From NCBI RefSeq assembly GCF_054482525.1, contig NZ_JBTHVG010000008.1: 5,891 bases of DNA; one strand, given 5' to 3'. The translations under genes were made by a program, and so were the position numbers. Below, piece by piece: positions 1 through 5,891 of the stretch (position 1 is the stretch's first letter; the number at the start of each line of letters is the position of its first letter). Below the pieces are notes generated by a model that was given only the letters and a program-made list of their open reading frames with translations, did no database searches and was not told the DNA's origin. The DNA is from a plasmid.

Positions 1-414
1 TCTGTCAGCGAGGCTGTGACATCAAACGAGACGAAAATCAGAGACGCTATAGCCCTGTTCACAGTCTCGACAGAGAAATCGCTGGAAAAACACCGGGAAG
101 GGGTGAAAGAGGCGATGATGCAGCACAGGAAGGACGTGTTAAAGCTGGCAGGGAATACGGGCATGATGTTACTGGGGATAGTCTTTCTTCTGTTTACCGC
201 GAGTGGCGGGACGCTCTGGTATCTTGGCGGACGGATACAGACGAACCTGGAAGAAATCAGGAAGCAGGAAGAGACATTGCAGAAACTGAACGCGAAGACA
301 TGGGGCGTGGAGTTTGTGCAGGACGGGAACAGGAAATTTCTGGTCCTTCCGTACGGGAAATCAGCAGAGATGATTCCCTTTCAGGGGAAAGAGTGGGTAC
401 ATCTGAAGGAGTGA
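1..414 (+). CDS. mbeB: Mobilization protein MbeB, 3' portion (5' partial at window edge; the first 35 codons lie at 5787..5891 if the window is circular)
   Basis: Frame 1 is open from nt 1 to TGA at 412-414. The track ORF 16..414 starts at an internal GTG. The translation contains one hydrophobic transmembrane-like segment (MMLLGIVFLLFTASGGTLWYLGG). The gene is nested out of frame inside mbeA, as in ColE1. Joined to 5787..5891 it gives 172 aa, the length I recall for ColE1 MbeB. Confidence 0.75.
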   Translation, partial: SVSEAVTSNETKIRDAIALFTVSTEKSLEKHREGVKEAMMQHRKDVLKLAGNTGMMLLGIVFLLFTASGGTLWYLGGRIQTNLEEIRKQEETLQKLNAKTWGVEFVQDGNRKFLVLPYGKSAEMIPFQGKEWVHLKE

Positions 415-761
415 CACAGAGTGACAGAGCTGGAAACACATTTGCTGAACGCCTTAGAGCAGCTGCAACAGGACTATATGCAGCGGCTGAGCGAATGGGA
501 GAGCGCCTTCGTGGAATTGCAGAAGATGTTTTCGCTTACGCAACGGGACAACGCGATGCTGAACGAGCGGGTCATGCAGTTGAGTCAGCAGGTGCAGCAC
601 TTGAGCGAGCAGACAGAACGCTTGAGCCAGTTATACAGCGAGAACTGGAGATAAGAGAGGAACGGTTGATGCAGGAGCGCGAACATGCGTTATCCCTGGA
701 ACGGGAGCGTCAGCTGGAAATACAGGAACGCACACTGGATGGCCCTTCGCTGGGATGGTGA
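3..761 (+). CDS. mbeA: Relaxase MbeA, C-terminal portion (continues from 5099..5891 across the window ends)
   Basis: I translated frame 3 codon by codon from nt 3 and found no stop until TGA at 759-761. The track reports only 300..761 because it begins at the first ATG. The single base left over at 5891 plus nt 1-2 completes one codon (gtc), so the two parts are in frame and sum to 517 aa. Confidence 0.8.
   Translation, partial: CQRGCDIKRDENQRRYSPVHSLDREIAGKTPGRGERGDDAAQEGRVKAGREYGHDVTGDSLSSVYREWRDALVSWRTDTDEPGRNQEAGRDIAETEREDMGRGVCAGREQEISGPSVREISRDDSLSGERVGTSEGVTQSDRAGNTFAERLRAAATGLYAAAERMGERLRGIAEDVFAYATGQRDAERAGHAVESAGAALERADRTLEPVIQRELEIREERLMQEREHALSLERERQLEIQERTLDGPSLGW
421..654 (+). 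CDS. mbeD: Mobilization / entry-exclusion protein MbeD-like, 77 aa
   Basis: GTG start at 421, directly after the mbeB stop and nested inside mbeA in a different frame. The product is a small glutamine/leucine-rich, probably coiled-coil protein (MTELETHLLNALEQLQQDY...). Position and size match the ColE1 mbeD arrangement as I recall it. Confidence 0.65.
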   Translation: MTELETHLLNALEQLQQDYMQRLSEWESAFVELQKMFSLTQRDNAMLNERVMQLSQQVQHLSEQTERLSQLYSENWR

Positions 762-966
762 AACCATGAAAAATGGCAGGTTCATTGGATTAAGGCGGAC
801 TAATGTGCTCTGTGCCATCTGGTTGCATAGGTATTCATACGGTTAAAATTTATCAGGCGCGATCGTGGCAGTTTTTCGGGTGGTTTGTTGCCATTTTTAC
901 CTGTCTGCTGCCGTGATCGCGCTGAACGCGTTTTAGCGGTACGTACAAACTGTTGTTATGTTAAAT
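760..966. other. cer-like Xer (XerC/XerD) multimer-resolution site: accessory sequences plus core at 938..966
   Basis: The stretch 846-946 (gcgatcgtggcagtttttcgggtggtttgttgccatttttacctgtctgctgccgtgatcgcgctgaacgcgttttagcggtacgtacaa) closely matches ColE1 cer as I remember it. Core: XerC-arm-like GGTACGTACAA (938-948), central region actgttg (949-955), XerD-arm-like TTATGTTAAAT (956-966). Each arm is one mismatch from the cer arms GGTGCGTACAA and TTATGGTAAAT. Confidence 0.7.
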
Positions 967-988
967 ACTGATGGGCTTTCCTGCTTGA

Positions 989-1873
989 TTATCCGAAGAG
1001 CAATCCCCAAACACTTTTAGCTACAGAAACAATGGCTTTCTTGGCGACTTTAGCCACTGACGCTATTGGTTTAGGTAGTACGGTGTCTATTATATCATCA
1101 ATAGCTCTATCTACGGTGTCTGCGAACCCGTCCTTTGCCGTTTCTACAATTTCTTTTGTTTTTATTTCGTCTTTTACTTGATGCACCACTCCGCTCTGTG
1201 CTTCCTTTGGGAGCGATCTTACTATTGCCTCCACTAACCTTGAAATGTTATAACCTTCATTCGCAGATACAGATATAACGGGATGTTTGGTAAAACCGAA
1301 TCGTTCTATTAAGTATTCTTCCTTTTTTCTAATATTTATTTGTTGTGAGGGTGATGGTTGGTGTTTTTCTTCATCCCATTCGCGGAATGGCTCAATCTTG
1401 TCGACTTGGTTTAAAACAAACAACACTTTTTCATCACCACCAACTGGTTTTAAAACATTTTTATAAAAGTGCTCATCAGCTGAAAATGCTCGATCATCAC
1501 CTTTAACAACCCAAAGCACCAGATCTAATTCTGGGAGAAGATTTTTATACAACTCTTCATATTCTATATCTTTAGCTTCATTTTCACCTACACCTGGTAT
1601 ATCTATTATTTTAATTGTTCTATCACCAAATGAAATTATTAATTCCTGAACCTTTCTCGTGCATGCTTCTACATCACTCACTGCACATACATTACCTTTA
1701 AAGATAGAATTACATAGGCTGGATTTACCAGCGCCGGTTTTACCCATAATCCCTATTACTGGTTCGTAATTAATAACATTTCTAATTTTGTTATAGACAG
1801 ACTTGCGAATCTCTTTAGGTAGAACATCCACAGCTTCTTTGATTAATTTTATACCTTGCGTATTGTTTTCCAT
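989..1873 (-). CDS. P-loop GTPase of the YfjP/YkfA/YeeP (MMR_HSR1-like) family with C-terminal amphipathic tail, 294 aa from the MENNTQ start
   Basis: The track ORF is 989..1960 on the minus strand. I prefer the ATG at 1873 (MENNTQGIK...): it has a GAGGA about 11 nt upstream and avoids overlap with the upstream gene, which ends at 1909. Motifs read in the translation: G1 GIMGKTGAGKSS, G3 DIPG, G4 NQVD, G5 SVSA. Conserved blocks ELDLVLW, DEHFY and QPSPSQQ resemble the E. coli CP4-prophage GTPases YkfA/YfjP/YeeP as I recall them. The C-terminus (PKPIASVAKVAKKAIVSVAKSVWGLLFG) looks amphipathic. Confidence 0.8.
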   Translation of the reverse strand: MENNTQGIKLIKEAVDVLPKEIRKSVYNKIRNVINYEPVIGIMGKTGAGKSSLCNSIFKGNVCAVSDVEACTRKVQELIISFGDRTIKIIDIPGVGENEAKDIEYEELYKNLLPELDLVLWVVKGDDRAFSADEHFYKNVLKPVGGDEKVLFVLNQVDKIEPFREWDEEKHQPSPSQQINIRKKEEYLIERFGFTKHPVISVSANEGYNISRLVEAIVRSLPKEAQSGVVHQVKDEIKTKEIVETAKDGFADTVDRAIDDIIDTVLPKPIASVAKVAKKAIVSVAKSVWGLLFG

Positions 1874-1908
1874 AGTTACTATTTTCCTCATTTTGTTGTT
1901 CATATGAA

Positions 1909-2343
1909 TTAACGGAAGCTTGTTTTTCTTTCTTCTTTTTCTTCCCCGCATACAGAACATTTGTAATGGCGATAGGTATCAGAACTCCCACTAAGATACC
2001 AATTGTGTCTTTTACCATGAACTCGCTCTGTAAAACATCTCACGCATCTTTCTTTCACATTGCAATAATCATCGACTGCAATTTCAACAAATCTTTCATG
2101 CCTTTCGCCTTCTTGTTCAGCGCCACAGTCGATACACTTTTTTACAGTTGTGCACTTGAAATCGTATTTATAACTTTCCTCTCCGTATTTATGCTGTTCT
2201 TTTTGTATAGTGCGATTGCAGTCAGGGCATAGTTTAGAATATTTACAAGTCTCACCATCAATAAGCTTATAGTTTCCTCCGTGTATACCTACCCCACACT
2301 TAGCCTTGATTGCTGCATTTTTTATGCTATCCCAAAAGCCCAT
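1909..2343 (-). CDS. Cysteine-rich small protein (144 aa) with three tandem CX5CX2C motifs plus a terminal CX2C; putative multi-zinc-ribbon protein
   Basis: ATG at 2343 (minus strand) is preceded by GGGAGA at about 7 nt spacing. The translation has 12 Cys arranged as CKYSKLCPDC, CTTVKKCIDC, CNVKERCVRC and CSVC, spaced about 30 aa apart. It ends 35 nt before the GTPase start, so the two are probably co-transcribed. I recognise no family. Confidence 0.7.
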   Translation of the reverse strand: MGFWDSIKNAAIKAKCGVGIHGGNYKLIDGETCKYSKLCPDCNRTIQKEQHKYGEESYKYDFKCTTVKKCIDCGAEQEGERHERFVEIAVDDYCNVKERCVRCFTERVHGKRHNWYLSGSSDTYRHYKCSVCGEEKEERKTSFR

Positions 2344-2389
2344 GGAAAAATCTCCCTACGATTAGTTGATATAAGTTGAACAATTCATC

Positions 2390-2440
2390 GACATGATTAT
2401 ACACGTATAGTGTGTGGATATATAAAAATGAGTATGGATT
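2390..2440 (-). promoter_or_regulatory. Candidate sigma70 promoter for the Cys-rich/GTPase gene pair (perfect -10 TATAAT on the minus strand at 2396..2401)
   Basis: The minus strand reads ...acgtgTATAATcatgtcg... about 50 nt upstream of the 2343 start codon. The -35 region is AT-rich and weak (TATATA-like). This is an inferred position within a 227-bp AT-rich intergenic gap (2344..2570). Confidence 0.3.
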
Positions 2441-2570
2441 TATGCTCTGTATAATGTTTTTGTTATGTTAAATATAGCGCTGAAAAAGTGGGGGCACTGG
2501 ATAAACTTCGTGTTTTTCCCGCAAAGATAGTATTGGAAAGTCATTGTCTAATTCATCCAAGATAAATATT

Positions 2571-3383
2571 TTACGAATTTGTGAGTTTGCTTGAGATTTT
2601 TATATATTCAGCCTTTATTAACTCATTGCCATATTTTTTCTCGAGTCTTTTAACAATGAAATGACCTCGAGCCATATCTTGATAATAGTCGGTAAACATT
2701 GTGTTTAATGTGGCTCCAGTTAGTGCTCCAATAACGGGAACGACTTGAGCTGCCATTTTTTCCGTAATAACTATACCAAATCTTGTTGCAACTTTTTCTA
2801 TTAACGAAGCTAACCATTTTCCTGTTTGTACTGAAGATGCGTTTTTGACAGCAATGTTAGAAATTTCTTTGGATAAATCTTGTACGATCTCGGCAGTCAA
2901 ACTTCTTGTTGCATAGTATGCAGTATTAGCTGCATCATCGTCATCAGATGGTCCTCCCAAGGAAAACACCTCTAAGCAGGCCAGTTTGGTATCAATATTA
3001 TCTAGCTCAAAACCTTCACTTCTTGCTATGTCAGCAATTGAACGAAGCATAATTGTCGTTGAAACCGGTAACTCAATTGCTAATGCAGAAAAGCCAAAAG
3101 CGCCACCAATGGCTCCAGATACGGCCGCAAAGAATTTATTTGTCTTAGTTGATGCTATTCGGTTAGGTTCATTGTCTAGACTCCATAAGGCCGCATCAGC
3201 AGCTTTGTGGAGCGATTTTTCTACTAGACTATAAATTTGCTCTTCTGCCCCTTTGGGAAGTTTACTCATTAAGTAATCTATTGGGGTTCCAACTAATTGG
3301 GTTAATGTTTCAGTAATTGTATCTTGTTCTAATAATTCTACGGCCCTTTCTAAAGCCCGCAGATCTCCTTCTTCAAGATGCAT
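2571..3383 (-). CDS. EcsC-family-like protein (putative), 270 aa
   Basis: Long minus-strand ORF. Its ATG at 3383 is preceded by AAAGGA at about 9 nt. It has Gly/Ala-rich hydrophobic segments (AAVSGAIGGAFGFSALAIELPVSTTIMLRSIADIARSEGF and VVPVIGALTGATLNTMFTDYY) that I associate with EcsC-family proteins. That assignment is from memory and unverified. Confidence 0.6.
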   Translation of the reverse strand: MHLEEGDLRALERAVELLEQDTITETLTQLVGTPIDYLMSKLPKGAEEQIYSLVEKSLHKAADAALWSLDNEPNRIASTKTNKFFAAVSGAIGGAFGFSALAIELPVSTTIMLRSIADIARSEGFELDNIDTKLACLEVFSLGGPSDDDDAANTAYYATRSLTAEIVQDLSKEISNIAVKNASSVQTGKWLASLIEKVATRFGIVITEKMAAQVVPVIGALTGATLNTMFTDYYQDMARGHFIVKRLEKKYGNELIKAEYIKISSKLTNS

Positions 3384-3536
3384 ATAATGAATCCTTTATG
3401 AATCAATCGATAGTCTACTTTTGTAAGTGATTCGTCTTGGGAGCTTACCTTGAGCGAGTTCAGTGATTCAATAGGCGAGATGCCGACATCATTGTTGTCT
3501 GTGAAGCAGGAGTGATGAAAAGATCAAAGGATCCTC

Positions 3537-3574: not shown

Positions 3575-3682
3575 AAACAAAAAAACCACCGCTACCAACG
3601 GTGGTTTGTTTGCCGGATCAAGAGCTACCAACTCTTTTTCCGAAGGTAACTGGCTTGGTGGAGCACAGATACCAAATACTGT
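3575..3682 (-). ncRNA. RNAI antisense copy-number control RNA (about 108 nt)
   Basis: The minus strand beginning at 3682 reads acagtatttggtatctg..., the RNAI 5' end. It is complementary to the 5' end of RNAII. Its promoter (-35 TTGAAG, -10 CTACACT) lies at 3689..3718 on the minus strand. Confidence 0.85.
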
Positions 3683-4761: not shown

Positions 4762-5109
4762 ATGATACCGATGAAACGCGAGAGGATGCTCACGATACGG
4801 GTTACTGATGATGAACATGCACGGTTACTGGAACGCTGTGAGGGTAAACAACTGGCGGTATGGATGCGGCGGGTCTGCCTGGGTGAGCCGGTTGCCCGTT
4901 CCGGGAAGCTGCCGACACTGGCACCGCCGTTACTGCGTCAGCTGGCTGCCATCGGGAATAACCTGAATCAGACGGCGAGGAAGGTGAACAGCGGGCAGTG
5001 GTCTTCCGGTGACCGGGTTCAGGTGGTGGCCGCACTGATGGCCATCGAGAGAGAGTTGCGCAGCTTACGGCAGGTCGTCAGGGAACAGGGAGCGCGGGAT
5101 GATAGTTAA
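4762..5109 (+). CDS. mbeC: Mobilization accessory protein MbeC (MobC family); start codon uncertain among 4762, 4771 and 4786
   Basis: The track ORF begins MIPMKRERMLTIRVTDDEHARLLERCEGKQLAVWMRR..., which is the reading frame whose first 30-odd codons survive as the mob remnant in pBR322. The stop at 5107-5109 overlaps the mbeA start. A start at 4786 would give the 107 aa I recall for ColE1 MbeC. Confidence 0.8.
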   Translation: MIPMKRERMLTIRVTDDEHARLLERCEGKQLAVWMRRVCLGEPVARSGKLPTLAPPLLRQLAAIGNNLNQTARKVNSGQWSSGDRVQVVAALMAIERELRSLRQVVREQGARDDS

Positions 5110-5891
5110 ATTTCATGCCAGGGGAAAAGGCGGTGGCAGTGGTCCGGTTGATTACCTGCTGGGAAGGGAGCGTAACCGGGAAGGGGCAACGGTGCTTCAG
5201 GGTAATCCGGAAGAAGTCCGGGAACTCATCGATGCCACGCCATTTGCGAAGAAATACACGTCAGGTGTTCTGTCGTTCGCGGAGAAGGAACTGCCGCCGG
5301 GAGGACGTGAAAAAGTGATGGCGAGCTTTGAGCGTGTACTGATGCCCGGTCTCGAAAAAAATCAGTACAGCATCCTGTGGGTTGAGCACCAGGACAAGGG
5401 ACGGCTTGAGCTGAATTTTGTCATTCCGAACATGGAGCTACAGAGCGGAAAACGCCTCCAGCCGTACTATGACCGCGCAGACAGGCCGAGAATTGATGCC
5501 TGGCAGACGCTGGTGAATCACCATTACGGGCTGCATGACCCGAATGCCCCGGAGAACCGCAGGACGCTGACACTCCCTGATAACCTGCCGGAAACGAAAC
5601 AGGCGATTGCTGAGAGCGTTACACGGGGGCTTGATGTGCTTTACCGTACCGGAGAGATAAAAGACCGTCAGGATGTGATTCAGGCACTCACAGATGTGGG
5701 AGTTGAGGTTGTCAGGGTGACGCGAAGCAGTATCAGCATTGCAGACCCGAACGGCGGAAGGAATATCAGGCTGAAAGGAGCATTTTATGAGCAATCTTTT
5801 ACAGACGGGCGCGGAGTTCGAGAAAAAGCTGAAAGAGAGAGCCGAATCTACAGAGAAAATGCTGAACGACGAGTTCAGGAAGCTCGGCGAG
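5099..5891 (+). CDS. mbeA: Relaxase MbeA (MOB-HEN / MOBP5 type), N-terminal portion, 3' partial at window edge
   Basis: This ORF is absent from the supplied track because it has no stop inside the window. I translated by hand from ATG 5099 in frame 2 and found no stop through 5891. The product begins MIVKFHARGKGGGSGPVDYLL (catalytic Tyr19 context) and contains the HEN signature in WVEHQDKGRLELNFVIPN. It overlaps the mbeC stop by 11 nt. Confidence 0.9.
   Translation, partial: MIVKFHARGKGGGSGPVDYLLGRERNREGATVLQGNPEEVRELIDATPFAKKYTSGVLSFAEKELPPGGREKVMASFERVLMPGLEKNQYSILWVEHQDKGRLELNFVIPNMELQSGKRLQPYYDRADRPRIDAWQTLVNHHYGLHDPNAPENRRTLTLPDNLPETKQAIAESVTRGLDVLYRTGEIKDRQDVIQALTDVGVEVVRVTRSSISIADPNGGRNIRLKGAFYEQSFTDGRGVREKAERESRIYRENAERRVQEARR
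5787..5891 (+). CDS. mbeB: MbeB, 5' portion (35 codons), nested in mbeA in the +1 frame; continues at 1..414
   Basis: ATG at 5787 is preceded by AAGGAG at 8-nt spacing. Frame 3 is open from there to the window end with the last codon complete at 5889-5891, so it joins frame 1 at nt 1 without a shift. Confidence 0.7.
   Translation, partial: MSNLLQTGAEFEKKLKERAESTEKMLNDEFRKLGE

Follow-up and report, generated by a model that had tools for sequence, protein, structure and literature searches.

The low-GC block of three genes at positions 989-3383 of this plasmid is probably a mosaic of accessory genes that were acquired separately and lie side by side in the variable cargo slot of a ColE1 backbone, rather than a three-component system. 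The observations concern its gene content, composition and family assignments, the lack of co-occurrence of the genes, their separate boundaries and their genomic contexts. The window, i.e. the whole stretch of DNA analysed, is a complete ColE1-type plasmid of 5,891 bp (Table 1), and its positions 900-3500 are identical to K. pneumoniae pMV-v4-SK2-O-b. The backbone genes are rom, a MobC-like gene, MbeB, MbeD and an intact MbeA (517 aa) that spans the window ends. The position of RNAI marks the RNAII start and the right-hand edge of the cargo slot and, since the cer-like core is found at the other side, the block lies between cer and the RNAII start. Its GC content is 36.9% versus 53.5% in the remaining plasmid, and the three cargo genes have a GC of 36.5-38.4% and a GC3 of 0.27-0.31. 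The preliminary description of this DNA had seen a mob/rom/ori/cer ColE1 backbone of roughly 50-55% GC with three co-oriented low-GC genes between cer and the RNAII promoter. All of this was confirmed, the genes being three minus-strand ORFs, and the block is real foreign cargo. It had also noticed no resemblance to colicin, immunity, lysis, resistance or toxin-antitoxin genes and, in agreement, profile searches of the three proteins against Pfam, NCBIfam and PADLOC gave no match to any of these families or to a validated defence family. The Rfam search found nothing inside the block and the PHROGs search nothing informative.

Table 1 Features of the window discussed in the text, from the replicon side to cer
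Feature	Position	Strand	Basis or remark
RNAI antisense RNA, ColE1 replicon	3577-3680	-	Rfam RF00106, 68.6 bits, E=1.7e-11
EcsC-family gene, 270 aa	3383..2571	-	Pfam PF12787, E=1.8e-31
AT-rich spacer, 227 bp, 32% GC	2344..2570	-	Contains Xer-like site 2
Xer-like site 2: XerC-like arm GCTCTGTATAA, spacer TGTTTTTG, XerD arm TTATGTTAAAT	2444..2473	+	Sequence
Cys/His-rich (zinc-ribbon-repeat) gene, 144 aa	2343..1909	-	ORF; no family profile match
YkfA/YfjP/YeeP-type GTPase gene, 294 aa	1873..989	-	RefSeq start; longest ORF reaches 1960
Xer core site 1, cer-like: GGTACGTACAA-ACTGTTG-TTATGTTAAAT (XerC arm, spacer, XerD arm)	938..966	+	Sequence

The three genes had been proposed to form one module, with a check of their co-occurrence across genomes as one way to find out and a lack of it outside this plasmid as a refutation. 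Once run, this check went against the proposal. The trio is restricted to a single near-clonal plasmid lineage (99.3-100% identical), with nine plasmids in PLSDB, plus one 12.9-kb IS91 cointegrate that also carries it. Among 5,426 complete E. coli genomes about 13 carry it (in 10 an unbroken match covers at least 80% of the query, and in a further 4 records the match is interrupted by the record start), and it is also present in Salmonella and Klebsiella. In a context sample of dozens of loci, no two of the genes were adjacent at any of the 40 non-self loci holding a homologue, where the identities ranged over 39-65% for the Cys-rich protein, 35-73% for the GTPase and 80-91% for EcsC. The scan of reference genomes yielded 6 loci only, because the single-protein patterns used reach close relatives alone. 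One further locus (L032) looked like an independent pair of Cys-rich and GTPase genes at 76% identity. It is the same plasmid again, in an error-rich version with frameshifts (by tblastn the GTPase is 99% identical and remnants of EcsC are present), and it was discarded as independent evidence. Within the lineage the trio is intact in every member across three genera, an observation that sits less easily with a mosaic. No functional study of this plasmid was found in the literature search.

The products had been described as EcsC-like, a Cys-rich repeat protein and a YfjP-family GTPase, and these three calls were right. Profile searches had been suggested as well and, when run with Pfam and PADLOC, matched EcsC and MMR_HSR1 and left the Cys-rich protein unmatched. 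The first protein belongs to the EcsC family, with positions 31-236 of the 240 of the PF12787 model aligned to residues 18-243. It is all-helical, with only two Gly-rich and moderately hydrophobic segments at residues ~83-110 and ~202-230 (from hydropathy), and its AF2 model is of low confidence. It is 91% identical to its counterpart on 3.27-3.28-kb ColE1 plasmids, where the gene is the sole cargo. The homology to one of these EcsC-only plasmids (L002) starts at position 2577 and continues onward, and the EcsC gene is the older cargo unit. A chromosomal homologue of 80% identity (948 contigs listed) stands alone in the hsd defence hotspot of E. coli, where it lies between orphan Rhs/CDI cassettes and a type I R-M system, DarTG or a RADAR-like pair. 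In Bacillus, EcsC is found in an operon with EcsA (ABC ATPase) and EcsB (permease). These partners of the EcsABC transporter are absent from all the EcsC contexts examined here, i.e. no ABC-transporter genes of the EcsA/EcsB type were found on the plasmid, on the 3.3-kb plasmids or up to 7 kb away from the chromosomal homologue of E. coli. Against PADLOC the protein gave a distant match to the candidate PDC-S29 (E=2.7e-10, 38 bits, profile positions 40-216 of 220, with no curated cut-off). PDC-S29 is a single-gene candidate and EcsC is likewise a stand-alone gene in a defence hotspot, but the similarity is weak. PDC-S29 appears in one paper as a mere prediction within a PADLOC table, and the literature searched held neither a functional test of it nor a functional study of an enterobacterial EcsC.

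The second protein had no match in Pfam, NCBIfam or PADLOC. An N-terminal helix is followed by three C-x5-C-x2-C-x8/9-H units, with a C-x4-H and a CxxC half-unit at their flanks, and 16 Cys/His positions are conserved across its homologues (15 invariant, and C103 absent in two). Sixteen conserved ligands would amount to four zinc sites, which are predicted to lie in a stack of beta-hairpins. The domain forms 392 clusters, with no Pfam family and no solved fold, and among 30 long proteins containing it there were fusions to EAD7 (5 of 30) and to CHAT (2 of 30). Its homologues are found in the mutS-rpoS region of Mixta, as lone genes in the moron slots of lambdoid prophages, upstream of a McrB-like gene, and in a smpB integrase island, where the homologue adjoins Hachiman-like or SMC/CTD4 genes and then a JukA fusion. 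In islands L007-L010 this JukA-coiled-coil fusion (PADLOC JukA match E=4e-50) is directly downstream of the Cys-rich homologue, with a gap of ~320 nt.

These neighbours and fusions relate the domain to two described kinds of conflict system. In Juk (jumbo-phage killer; bioRxiv 10.1101/2022.09.17.508391) the YaaW-like sensor JukA has EcsC-like operon partners and fusions to Ras-like GTPases and Zn-fingers. The likeness of such partners to the three cargo proteins is one of protein kind, and the plasmid has no JukA: none of the three proteins matched it (PADLOC, E<=0.1), so they do not belong to Juk. That EcsC-like, GTPase and Zn-finger types have all been reported as JukA partners or fusions could nonetheless hint at a shared theme, which would speak against a mosaic. 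In the EAD-linked NTPase conflict systems (Kaur, Burroughs, Iyer and Aravind; eLife 2020 PMC7159879, eLife 2021 PMC8195603) the EADs are adaptors that recruit effectors, and there are GTPase switches with N-terminal zinc ribbons. Through its fusions to EAD7 and to caspase-like CHAT domains the Cys-rich domain is connected to these systems, but the plasmid proteins have no EAD, GAP1 partner or DO-GTPase Pfam match, and the zinc ribbon, fused in those systems, is here a separate small gene.

The third protein matches Pfam MMR_HSR1 (E=1.4e-16), has intact GTPase motifs (G1 GKTGAGKS 44-51, G3 DIPG 91-94, G4 NQVD 155-158, G5 VSA 202-204) and shares 44% identity with YkfA of E. coli K-12 over residues 3-261 (88% of the length). 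By this full-length similarity and the intact G domain it is a member of the YkfA/YfjP/YeeP mobile-element GTPases. Those of the CP4-type cryptic prophage islands of E. coli are alike in their length of ~290 aa, their Era/Der-like G domain and their helical C-terminal part and, as the GTPase here, they are carried by mobile elements. In the islands they are preceded by a WYL regulator, whereas here the GTPase is preceded by the zinc-ribbon-repeat gene, on a 5.9-kb ColE1 plasmid. Among solved structures, the G domains of Der and Era are the closest. The C-terminal tail is basic and amphipathic, ends in WGLLFG and is conserved among homologues. There are 4,389 of these at E<=1e-3, mostly from Enterobacterales among the matches listed. 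Relatives were found as solo cargo of a 4.8-kb Col156 plasmid, adjoining ccdAB on an Aeromonas plasmid, between toxin-antitoxin pairs on Acinetobacter pAV1, following WYL regulators in integrative islands and next to an integrase remnant (L044); a Providencia relative reaches 73% identity. No gene follows the GTPase gene before cer, and the literature searched contained no function or functional study of the YkfA/YfjP/YeeP family.

Two other assignments of the GTPase were considered and rejected. As a member of Eleos (dynamin-like LeoA-LeoBC) it is too short (294 aa versus about 560-600 aa), and only its G domain aligns to LeoBC (PADLOC profile positions 48-237 of 601), with 22 bits against NCBIfam DLP_LeoA_gen, below the cut-off of 325. 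As to a DO-GTPase/GAP1 conflict system, neither family, both of which we take to be present in Pfam, was among the 24 Pfam matches listed to E=10. PADLOC similarity is of the G domain only for the GTPase, and weak, at 38 bits, for EcsC, which counts against a defence role.

Two putative Xer recombination sites bound part of the block. A cer-type site consists of an XerC arm of 11 nt, a central region of 6-8 nt and an XerD arm of 11 nt, and for activity it also requires accessory sequences and XerCD. Site 1 matches 10 of 11 positions of the XerC arm of ColE1 cer and 11 of 11 of the XerD arm of dif; the arm consensuses of dif and cer served as the reference for both sites. The homology with ColE1-plasmid backbones stops near this site, at about 966-975. 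In pACN001-C, which has a sister backbone, the homology stops at the XerD arm and a different cargo, with no Pfam or PADLOC match, starts from the same arm. The window contains two exact XerD-arm matches, versus 0.15 expected. The one at site 2 is in the same orientation, next to a degenerate XerC arm that fits the consensus at about 7 of 11 positions. This poor XerC arm counts against a capture at these sites. Both XerD arms are contained in a 15-nt exact direct repeat, TTGTTATGTTAAATA, at 953-967 and 2460-2474, and repeats of at least 15 nt arose in 4 of 500 composition-matched simulations. The related plasmids L002, L016 and L035 have one Xer site each, and the EcsC-only plasmid is without the 15-mer. 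The Cys-rich and GTPase genes are located on a 1.5-kb segment (about 968-2474) bracketed by sites 1 and 2, and this bracketing by XerD-arm sequences in direct repeat, with the cer core at one end, suggests an Xer-mediated capture of the segment at cer. A passage of PMC6764390 describes Xer sites as accepted points of cointegrate formation and gene capture and gives, citing Tran et al. 2012, a precedent for Xer-mediated capture on small plasmids. In the known Xer-site-bounded modules (the ColE1-type qnrB19 plasmids of Tran et al. 2012 and the Xer/pdif modules of Acinetobacter) the cargo also lies between XerC/XerD-type sites, one of them the dimer-resolution site, but there it is a resistance gene and here two genes, with a predicted second site whose XerC arm is degenerate.

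The AT-rich spacer that contains site 2 had matches in PLSDB in the nine sister plasmids only, and no homologue was found outside the lineage. Upstream of the Cys-rich gene it has a TATAAT box (2401-2396, minus strand) and a GGGAGA ribosome-binding site (2355-2350). The former is only a visual -10 match, because the consensus scan called no minus-strand promoter within the block. No terminator-like site was called within the block either and, given their shared orientation, the three genes could be co-transcribed. This possible co-transcription, as well as the distance of only 35 nt from the Cys-rich stop to the GTPase start, fits a mosaic less well.

We propose that the block consists of two units. 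Unit 1 would be the EcsC-family gene, which brings its own upstream region and adjoins the replication origin. Unit 2 would be the 1.5-kb segment, with the zinc-ribbon-repeat and GTPase genes behind a likely promoter, and host XerCD recombination may have captured it at cer, via a cointegrate or a circular intermediate. Since each family moves alone, in small plasmids, integrase islands, moron slots and defence hotspots, we infer that each gene acts alone, or that any joint action is limited to the unit 2 genes. A defence or mobile-element association had been hinted at before, and each gene family was indeed found in such contexts. From these contexts we infer a defence role, most likely in mobile-element conflict as phage or plasmid exclusion. 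The GTPase might work as a nucleotide-dependent switch, tethered to the membrane or to a partner by its basic amphipathic tail; the zinc-ribbon-repeat protein might serve, without enzymatic activity, as a four-zinc scaffold for binding a macromolecule of the invader; and EcsC would be a helical protein with two Gly-rich hydrophobic helices acting at the inner membrane.

Other readings of the block have to be weighed against this mosaic. The zinc-ribbon-repeat protein and the GTPase could be a two-gene system, for example a sensor and a membrane-tethered switch or effector, with EcsC as unrelated single-gene cargo. The two genes share the strand, the short gap, one candidate promoter upstream and the enclosure by Xer-arm repeats; zinc ribbon-GTPase fusions are common in DO-GTPase conflict systems (PMC7159879), and the usual WYL regulator gene before the GTPase in islands means that the upstream position is functionally occupied elsewhere. 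However, the pair was seen nowhere besides this lineage, GTPase relatives of 61-73% identity (L018, L020, L026-L030, L044) have no Cys-rich gene nearby, and at least nine distinct contexts of the Cys-rich gene have no adjacent GTPase. Both families clearly function without each other, and we consider such a pair unlikely. For all three genes to be one defence or addiction module, for example a relative of Juk without JukA (membrane protein, zinc-finger sensor and GTPase), is highly improbable, the lowest rated of the readings considered. Adjacency, orientation, similar low GC and GC3 and the missing internal terminator-like site would agree with it, and so would the partners and fusions given in the Juk preprint and the Cys-rich homologue directly upstream of the JukA-coiled-coil fusion in islands L007-L010. 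Against it are the failed co-occurrence test (0 of 40 loci), the presence of EcsC on the 3.3-kb plasmids with a homology breakpoint at its 3' end, the 227-bp lineage-specific spacer with an Xer site that parts EcsC from the other two genes, and a plasmid that has no JukA.

The genes may also have nothing to do with defence, being hitchhiking or host-physiology cargo or selectively neutral passengers. EcsC could be an orphan immunity or protection protein that counters a membrane-acting toxin or bacteriocin, the GTPase a stress or ribosome-associated factor and the Cys-rich protein a regulator. The position of the chromosomal EcsC homologue right after orphan Rhs/CDI toxin-immunity cassettes fits an immunity role, the closest solved GTPase relatives, Der and Era, are ribosome-assembly GTPases, and none of the three proteins has a validated defence-family match. 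A survey of gut ColE1 plasmids puts an 'era GTPase' and an 'escC family' gene, possibly the same kinds of genes, in its miscellaneous cargo, function not given. Yet R-M, DarTG, RADAR-like, Hachiman-like, McrB-like and JukA neighbours are found repeatedly, together with prophage moron slots and the fusion of the Cys-rich domain to EAD7 and CHAT, and neutrality is at odds with the preservation of intact ORFs and motifs in hosts of three genera, so that a non-defence cargo appears very unlikely. A far-reaching and quite doubtful possibility is that the zinc-ribbon-repeat protein and the YkfA-type GTPase, possibly with a membrane-acting EcsC, form a new GTP-switched anti-phage or anti-plasmid system on an Xer-mobilised cassette, the zinc-ribbon-repeat domain being a new invader-sensing module reused across Juk-like, McrBC-like and GTPase-based immunity.

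With the block read as a mosaic, an operon-like row of genes can turn out to be several unrelated cassettes placed side by side, and adjacency in one plasmid lineage is thus weak evidence for a system. Small multicopy plasmids are a neglected reservoir of accessory genes. On this one, cer appears to serve as a docking point for cargo exchange, and Xer-mediated capture on ColE1 plasmids would then apply to genes of unknown function as well as to resistance genes. For phage or plasmid exclusion the plasmid also offers three candidates that are tractable as single genes: EcsC, as sole cargo on the widespread 3.3-kb plasmids and a gene of the E. coli hsd hotspot; the zinc-ribbon-repeat domain, tied to conflict systems by its fusions; and the YkfA/YfjP/YeeP GTPases, with thousands of members that include genes of E. 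coli K-12. A phenotype for any of them would annotate thousands of hypothetical genes. Among the GTPase homologues, those of Providencia have N-terminal extensions of 94 aa that were considered as fused zinc ribbons; this was rejected, as the extensions lack Cys residues and appear to reflect mis-called starts.

The window is a complete circular plasmid with a ColE1-type backbone, and its sequence from 900 to 3500, the part used as query, matches pMV-v4-SK2-O-b from Klebsiella pneumoniae (NZ_CP085865.1) at 100% identity. Since the MbeA gene runs across both ends of the linear window, ORF lists made from that sequence lack it; it is also absent from the PLSDB gene table. ColE1 replicons require no Rep protein, and the 52-aa "replication initiation protein" annotated by RefSeq within the RNAII primer region (WP_071529495.1, 3702-3860, minus strand), present on 3.3-kb plasmids too, is probably a spurious ORF call. 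In one collected locus, L043 (CP100018.1, 12,915 bp), the window plasmid forms a cointegrate with a further ColE1 replicon, and an IS91-family transposase, in two copies, marks the junctions.

Features of the 5,891-bp plasmid and of homologous loci (L-numbers, with positions within each locus)
Feature	Location	Strand	Remarks
EcsC gene, 270 aa	3383..2571	-	Pfam PF12787, E=1.8e-31
Cys-rich gene, 144 aa	2343..1909	-	
GTPase gene, 294 aa (RefSeq start)	1873..989	-	Pfam MMR_HSR1-type G domain, E=1.4e-16
cer-like Xer core	938-966		GGTACGTACAA-ACTGTTG-TTATGTTAAAT
RNAI	3577-3680	-	Rfam
Rop, MobC-family protein, MbeB, MbeD	backbone		RefSeq annotation
MbeA relaxase, 517 aa, intact	5099-5891 joined to 1-758		spans window ends
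80% EcsC homologue, E. coli chromosomes	L021-L025 7001-7834		
WYL regulator and GTPase homologue	L018 5147-6882; L026 6624-8846; L027 6649-8855		integrative islands
Cys-rich homologues	L039 and L042 5001-5435; L033 8001-8441; L034 4751-5191		lambdoid moron positions
JukA-coiled-coil protein	L007 8762-10627; likewise L008, L009, L010		~320 nt downstream of Cys-rich homologue
Two other cargo genes of pACN001-C	L035 2649-4684		co-oriented, hypothetical, 385 and 296 aa, 13-nt overlap

The low-GC block of three co-oriented genes at 989-3383, proposed in the preliminary description, was confirmed, with a GC content of 36.9% against 53.5% in the remaining plasmid and a GC3 of 0.27-0.31 in the cargo genes. 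The Pfam match bears out the EcsC-like label, and "YfjP-family" is supported for the GTPase by 44% identity to E. coli K-12 YkfA across 88% of its length. As had been stated, no cargo protein looks like a colicin, an immunity or lysis protein, or a resistance or toxin-antitoxin protein. In the all-helical EcsC protein two segments are hydrophobic and rich in Gly; its structural model was poor, the fold search was uninformative, and PADLOC gave a weak match to PDC-S29, itself an untested candidate. The Cys/His-rich protein (zinc-ribbon-repeat protein, from its putative zinc sites) had no significant match in Pfam, NCBIfam, PADLOC or PHROGs. In the GTPase the G1, G3, G4 and G5 motifs are intact, and the match to LeoA/LeoBC (PADLOC/NCBIfam) is confined to the G domain. 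A basic amphipathic C-terminal tail is common to its family; in the homologues P0111 and P0132 (408-409 aa) a Gly-run and then a Cys-containing domain of ~110 aa (GGGGCYITTAVC...) replace it.

The three genes had also been put forward as one undescribed module, for which joint occurrence outside the plasmid was a proposed test. This part of the claim failed. Across PLSDB, the complete E. coli genomes and the collected loci, the trio is restricted to one nearly clonal plasmid lineage, found in nine PLSDB plasmids of E. coli, Salmonella and Klebsiella (99.3-100% identity) and in about 13 of 5,426 complete E. coli genomes. When all three proteins were compared by tblastn with 40 further loci encoding a homologue of one gene, no two of the trio were adjacent in any. 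The nearest approach was an smpB-linked island that holds both a Cys-rich homologue and a 50%-identical GTPase, 7.5 kb apart on opposite strands, with a four-gene conflict system in between. A contig seeming to hold a diverged Cys-rich and GTPase pair proved to be the same plasmid with sequencing errors.

The internal boundaries point to separate origins. Homology to plasmids carrying only EcsC starts at 2577, inside the EcsC 3' end, and continues through the replicon; in 3.27-3.28-kb ColE1-like plasmids EcsC is the sole cargo (91% nucleotide identity). The 227-bp spacer between the EcsC and Cys-rich genes is unique to the plasmid lineage. An exact 15-nt direct repeat, TTGTTATGTTAAATA, occurs at 953-967 and 2460-2474; repeats of at least 15 nt arose in 4 of 500 composition-matched simulations. 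It includes TTATGTTAAAT, the XerD-binding arm in the consensus of dif and cer sites, with two exact copies in the plasmid versus 0.15 expected. The first copy forms part of the cer core as its XerD arm, and the second (core site 2444-2473), in the same orientation, follows a degenerate XerC-like arm; related ColE1 plasmids have one such Xer site each. With XerD-arm repeats at both ends, the Cys-rich and GTPase genes therefore lie on a 1.5-kb Xer-arm-bracketed segment. The simplest reading of the sequence suggests that this segment was captured at cer through XerCD recombination, a process accepted for small plasmids in a passage of PMC6764390 citing Tran et al. 2012. The capture is an inference: an empty-site ancestor of the segment was looked for and not found.

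Each gene family, taken alone, is independently mobile and repeatedly found among defence genes, and to this extent the preliminary description is supported. The 80% EcsC homologue is listed on 948 contigs, E. coli chromosomes among them, and in the latter it is always a lone gene, flanked on one side by orphan Rhs/CDI toxin-immunity cassettes and on the other by type I restriction-modification, DarTG or a RADAR-like pair (799-aa deaminase-like and 947 aa); this site is a defence hotspot. Relatives at 70-78% occur in Vibrio, Aeromonas, Morganella and Pseudoalteromonas. A 192.7-kb E. coli plasmid (NZ_CP127301.1, 52971-53893) contains the EcsC region of the 3.3-kb type at 91% identity, a sign that a small ColE1 plasmid, or the cargo of one, may have integrated there. 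The GTPase family has thousands of members, mostly Enterobacterales among the matches listed. Relatives are stand-alone cargo of a 4.8-kb Col156 plasmid, of an Aeromonas plasmid (adjoining ccdAB) and of Acinetobacter pAV1 (flanked by toxin-antitoxin pairs). In integrative islands an HTH-WYL regulator gene is consistently found 5' of GTPase homologues (61-67% identity), and an integrase remnant precedes other island relatives.

The close Cys-rich family comprises 13 clusters, with named members in Mixta, Yersinia and Leclercia. In the Mixta mutS-rpoS region the homologue is a solitary gene; it adjoins Hachiman-like or SMC/CTD4/MComp1 genes in smpB integrase islands, and on one contig is followed by an McrB-like AAA protein. 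In lambdoid prophages it is again a single gene and occupies one of two moron slots, that between replication genes and NinG (opposite strand) or that between Q-like and holin genes. Yet no member of the family turned up in 50,697 sequenced phage genomes, where searches with all three proteins gave only two remote G-domain matches. A profile search extended the domain to 392 representative clusters, many of them stand-alone proteins of ~140 aa, others of 300-1,046 aa with the domain N-terminal. In a set of 30 of these long proteins the fusion partner was EAD7 in 5 and a CHAT caspase-like domain in 2, both described within NTPase-centred conflict systems (PMC7159879, PMC8195603). In the smpB islands, the ~620-aa protein 3' of the Cys-rich homologue combines an N-terminal JukA domain (E=4e-50) with a long coiled-coil C-terminus, and is kept in two island variants whose left flank is SMC/CTD4/MComp1 or Hachiman-like HamA and helicase. 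Going by the partners that the Juk preprint (bioRxiv 10.1101/2022.09.17.508391) gives for JukA, the YaaW-like sensor of Juk, all three plasmid gene types (EcsC-like, GTPase, Zn-finger) appear among them, a likeness by gene type alone; the plasmid differs in having no JukA.

The best-supported interpretation is that the block is a mosaic and not a conserved three-gene unit, in which EcsC would be the older single-gene cargo and the zinc-ribbon-repeat gene and GTPase a later Xer-bounded two-gene insert. A single system of all three would agree with their shared strand and composition, and has lower probability given the one-lineage distribution. The Cys-rich and GTPase genes might work as a pair, as their common segment allows; a TATAAT box and a ribosome-binding site lie upstream of them, and the GTPase starts 35 nt (RefSeq start) past the Cys-rich stop, so the genes do not overlap. 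This too is less probable, no two of the genes being adjacent in any of the 40 loci. Cargo unrelated to defence would suit the lack of a match to any validated defence family in PADLOC and is less favoured by the neighbourhoods of all three families; it is these contexts that make it plausible for each gene to act in excluding phages or plasmids.

Public records already hold the plasmids and the names of the families. The novelty is modest and lies in three points: cargo of unknown function bracketed by Xer arms on a ColE1 plasmid, the recurrence of EcsC both as solo cargo and as a gene of a hotspot, and a widespread zinc-ribbon-repeat domain with conflict-system fusions, not in Pfam or solved structures. 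In pACN001-C (NC_023324.1), a sister backbone, homology to the window plasmid ends at the XerD arm of cer, where another gene pair begins and fills the same slot. Its two proteins had no Pfam or PADLOC match, and the genes are a further uncharacterised cargo pair in the ColE1 slot.
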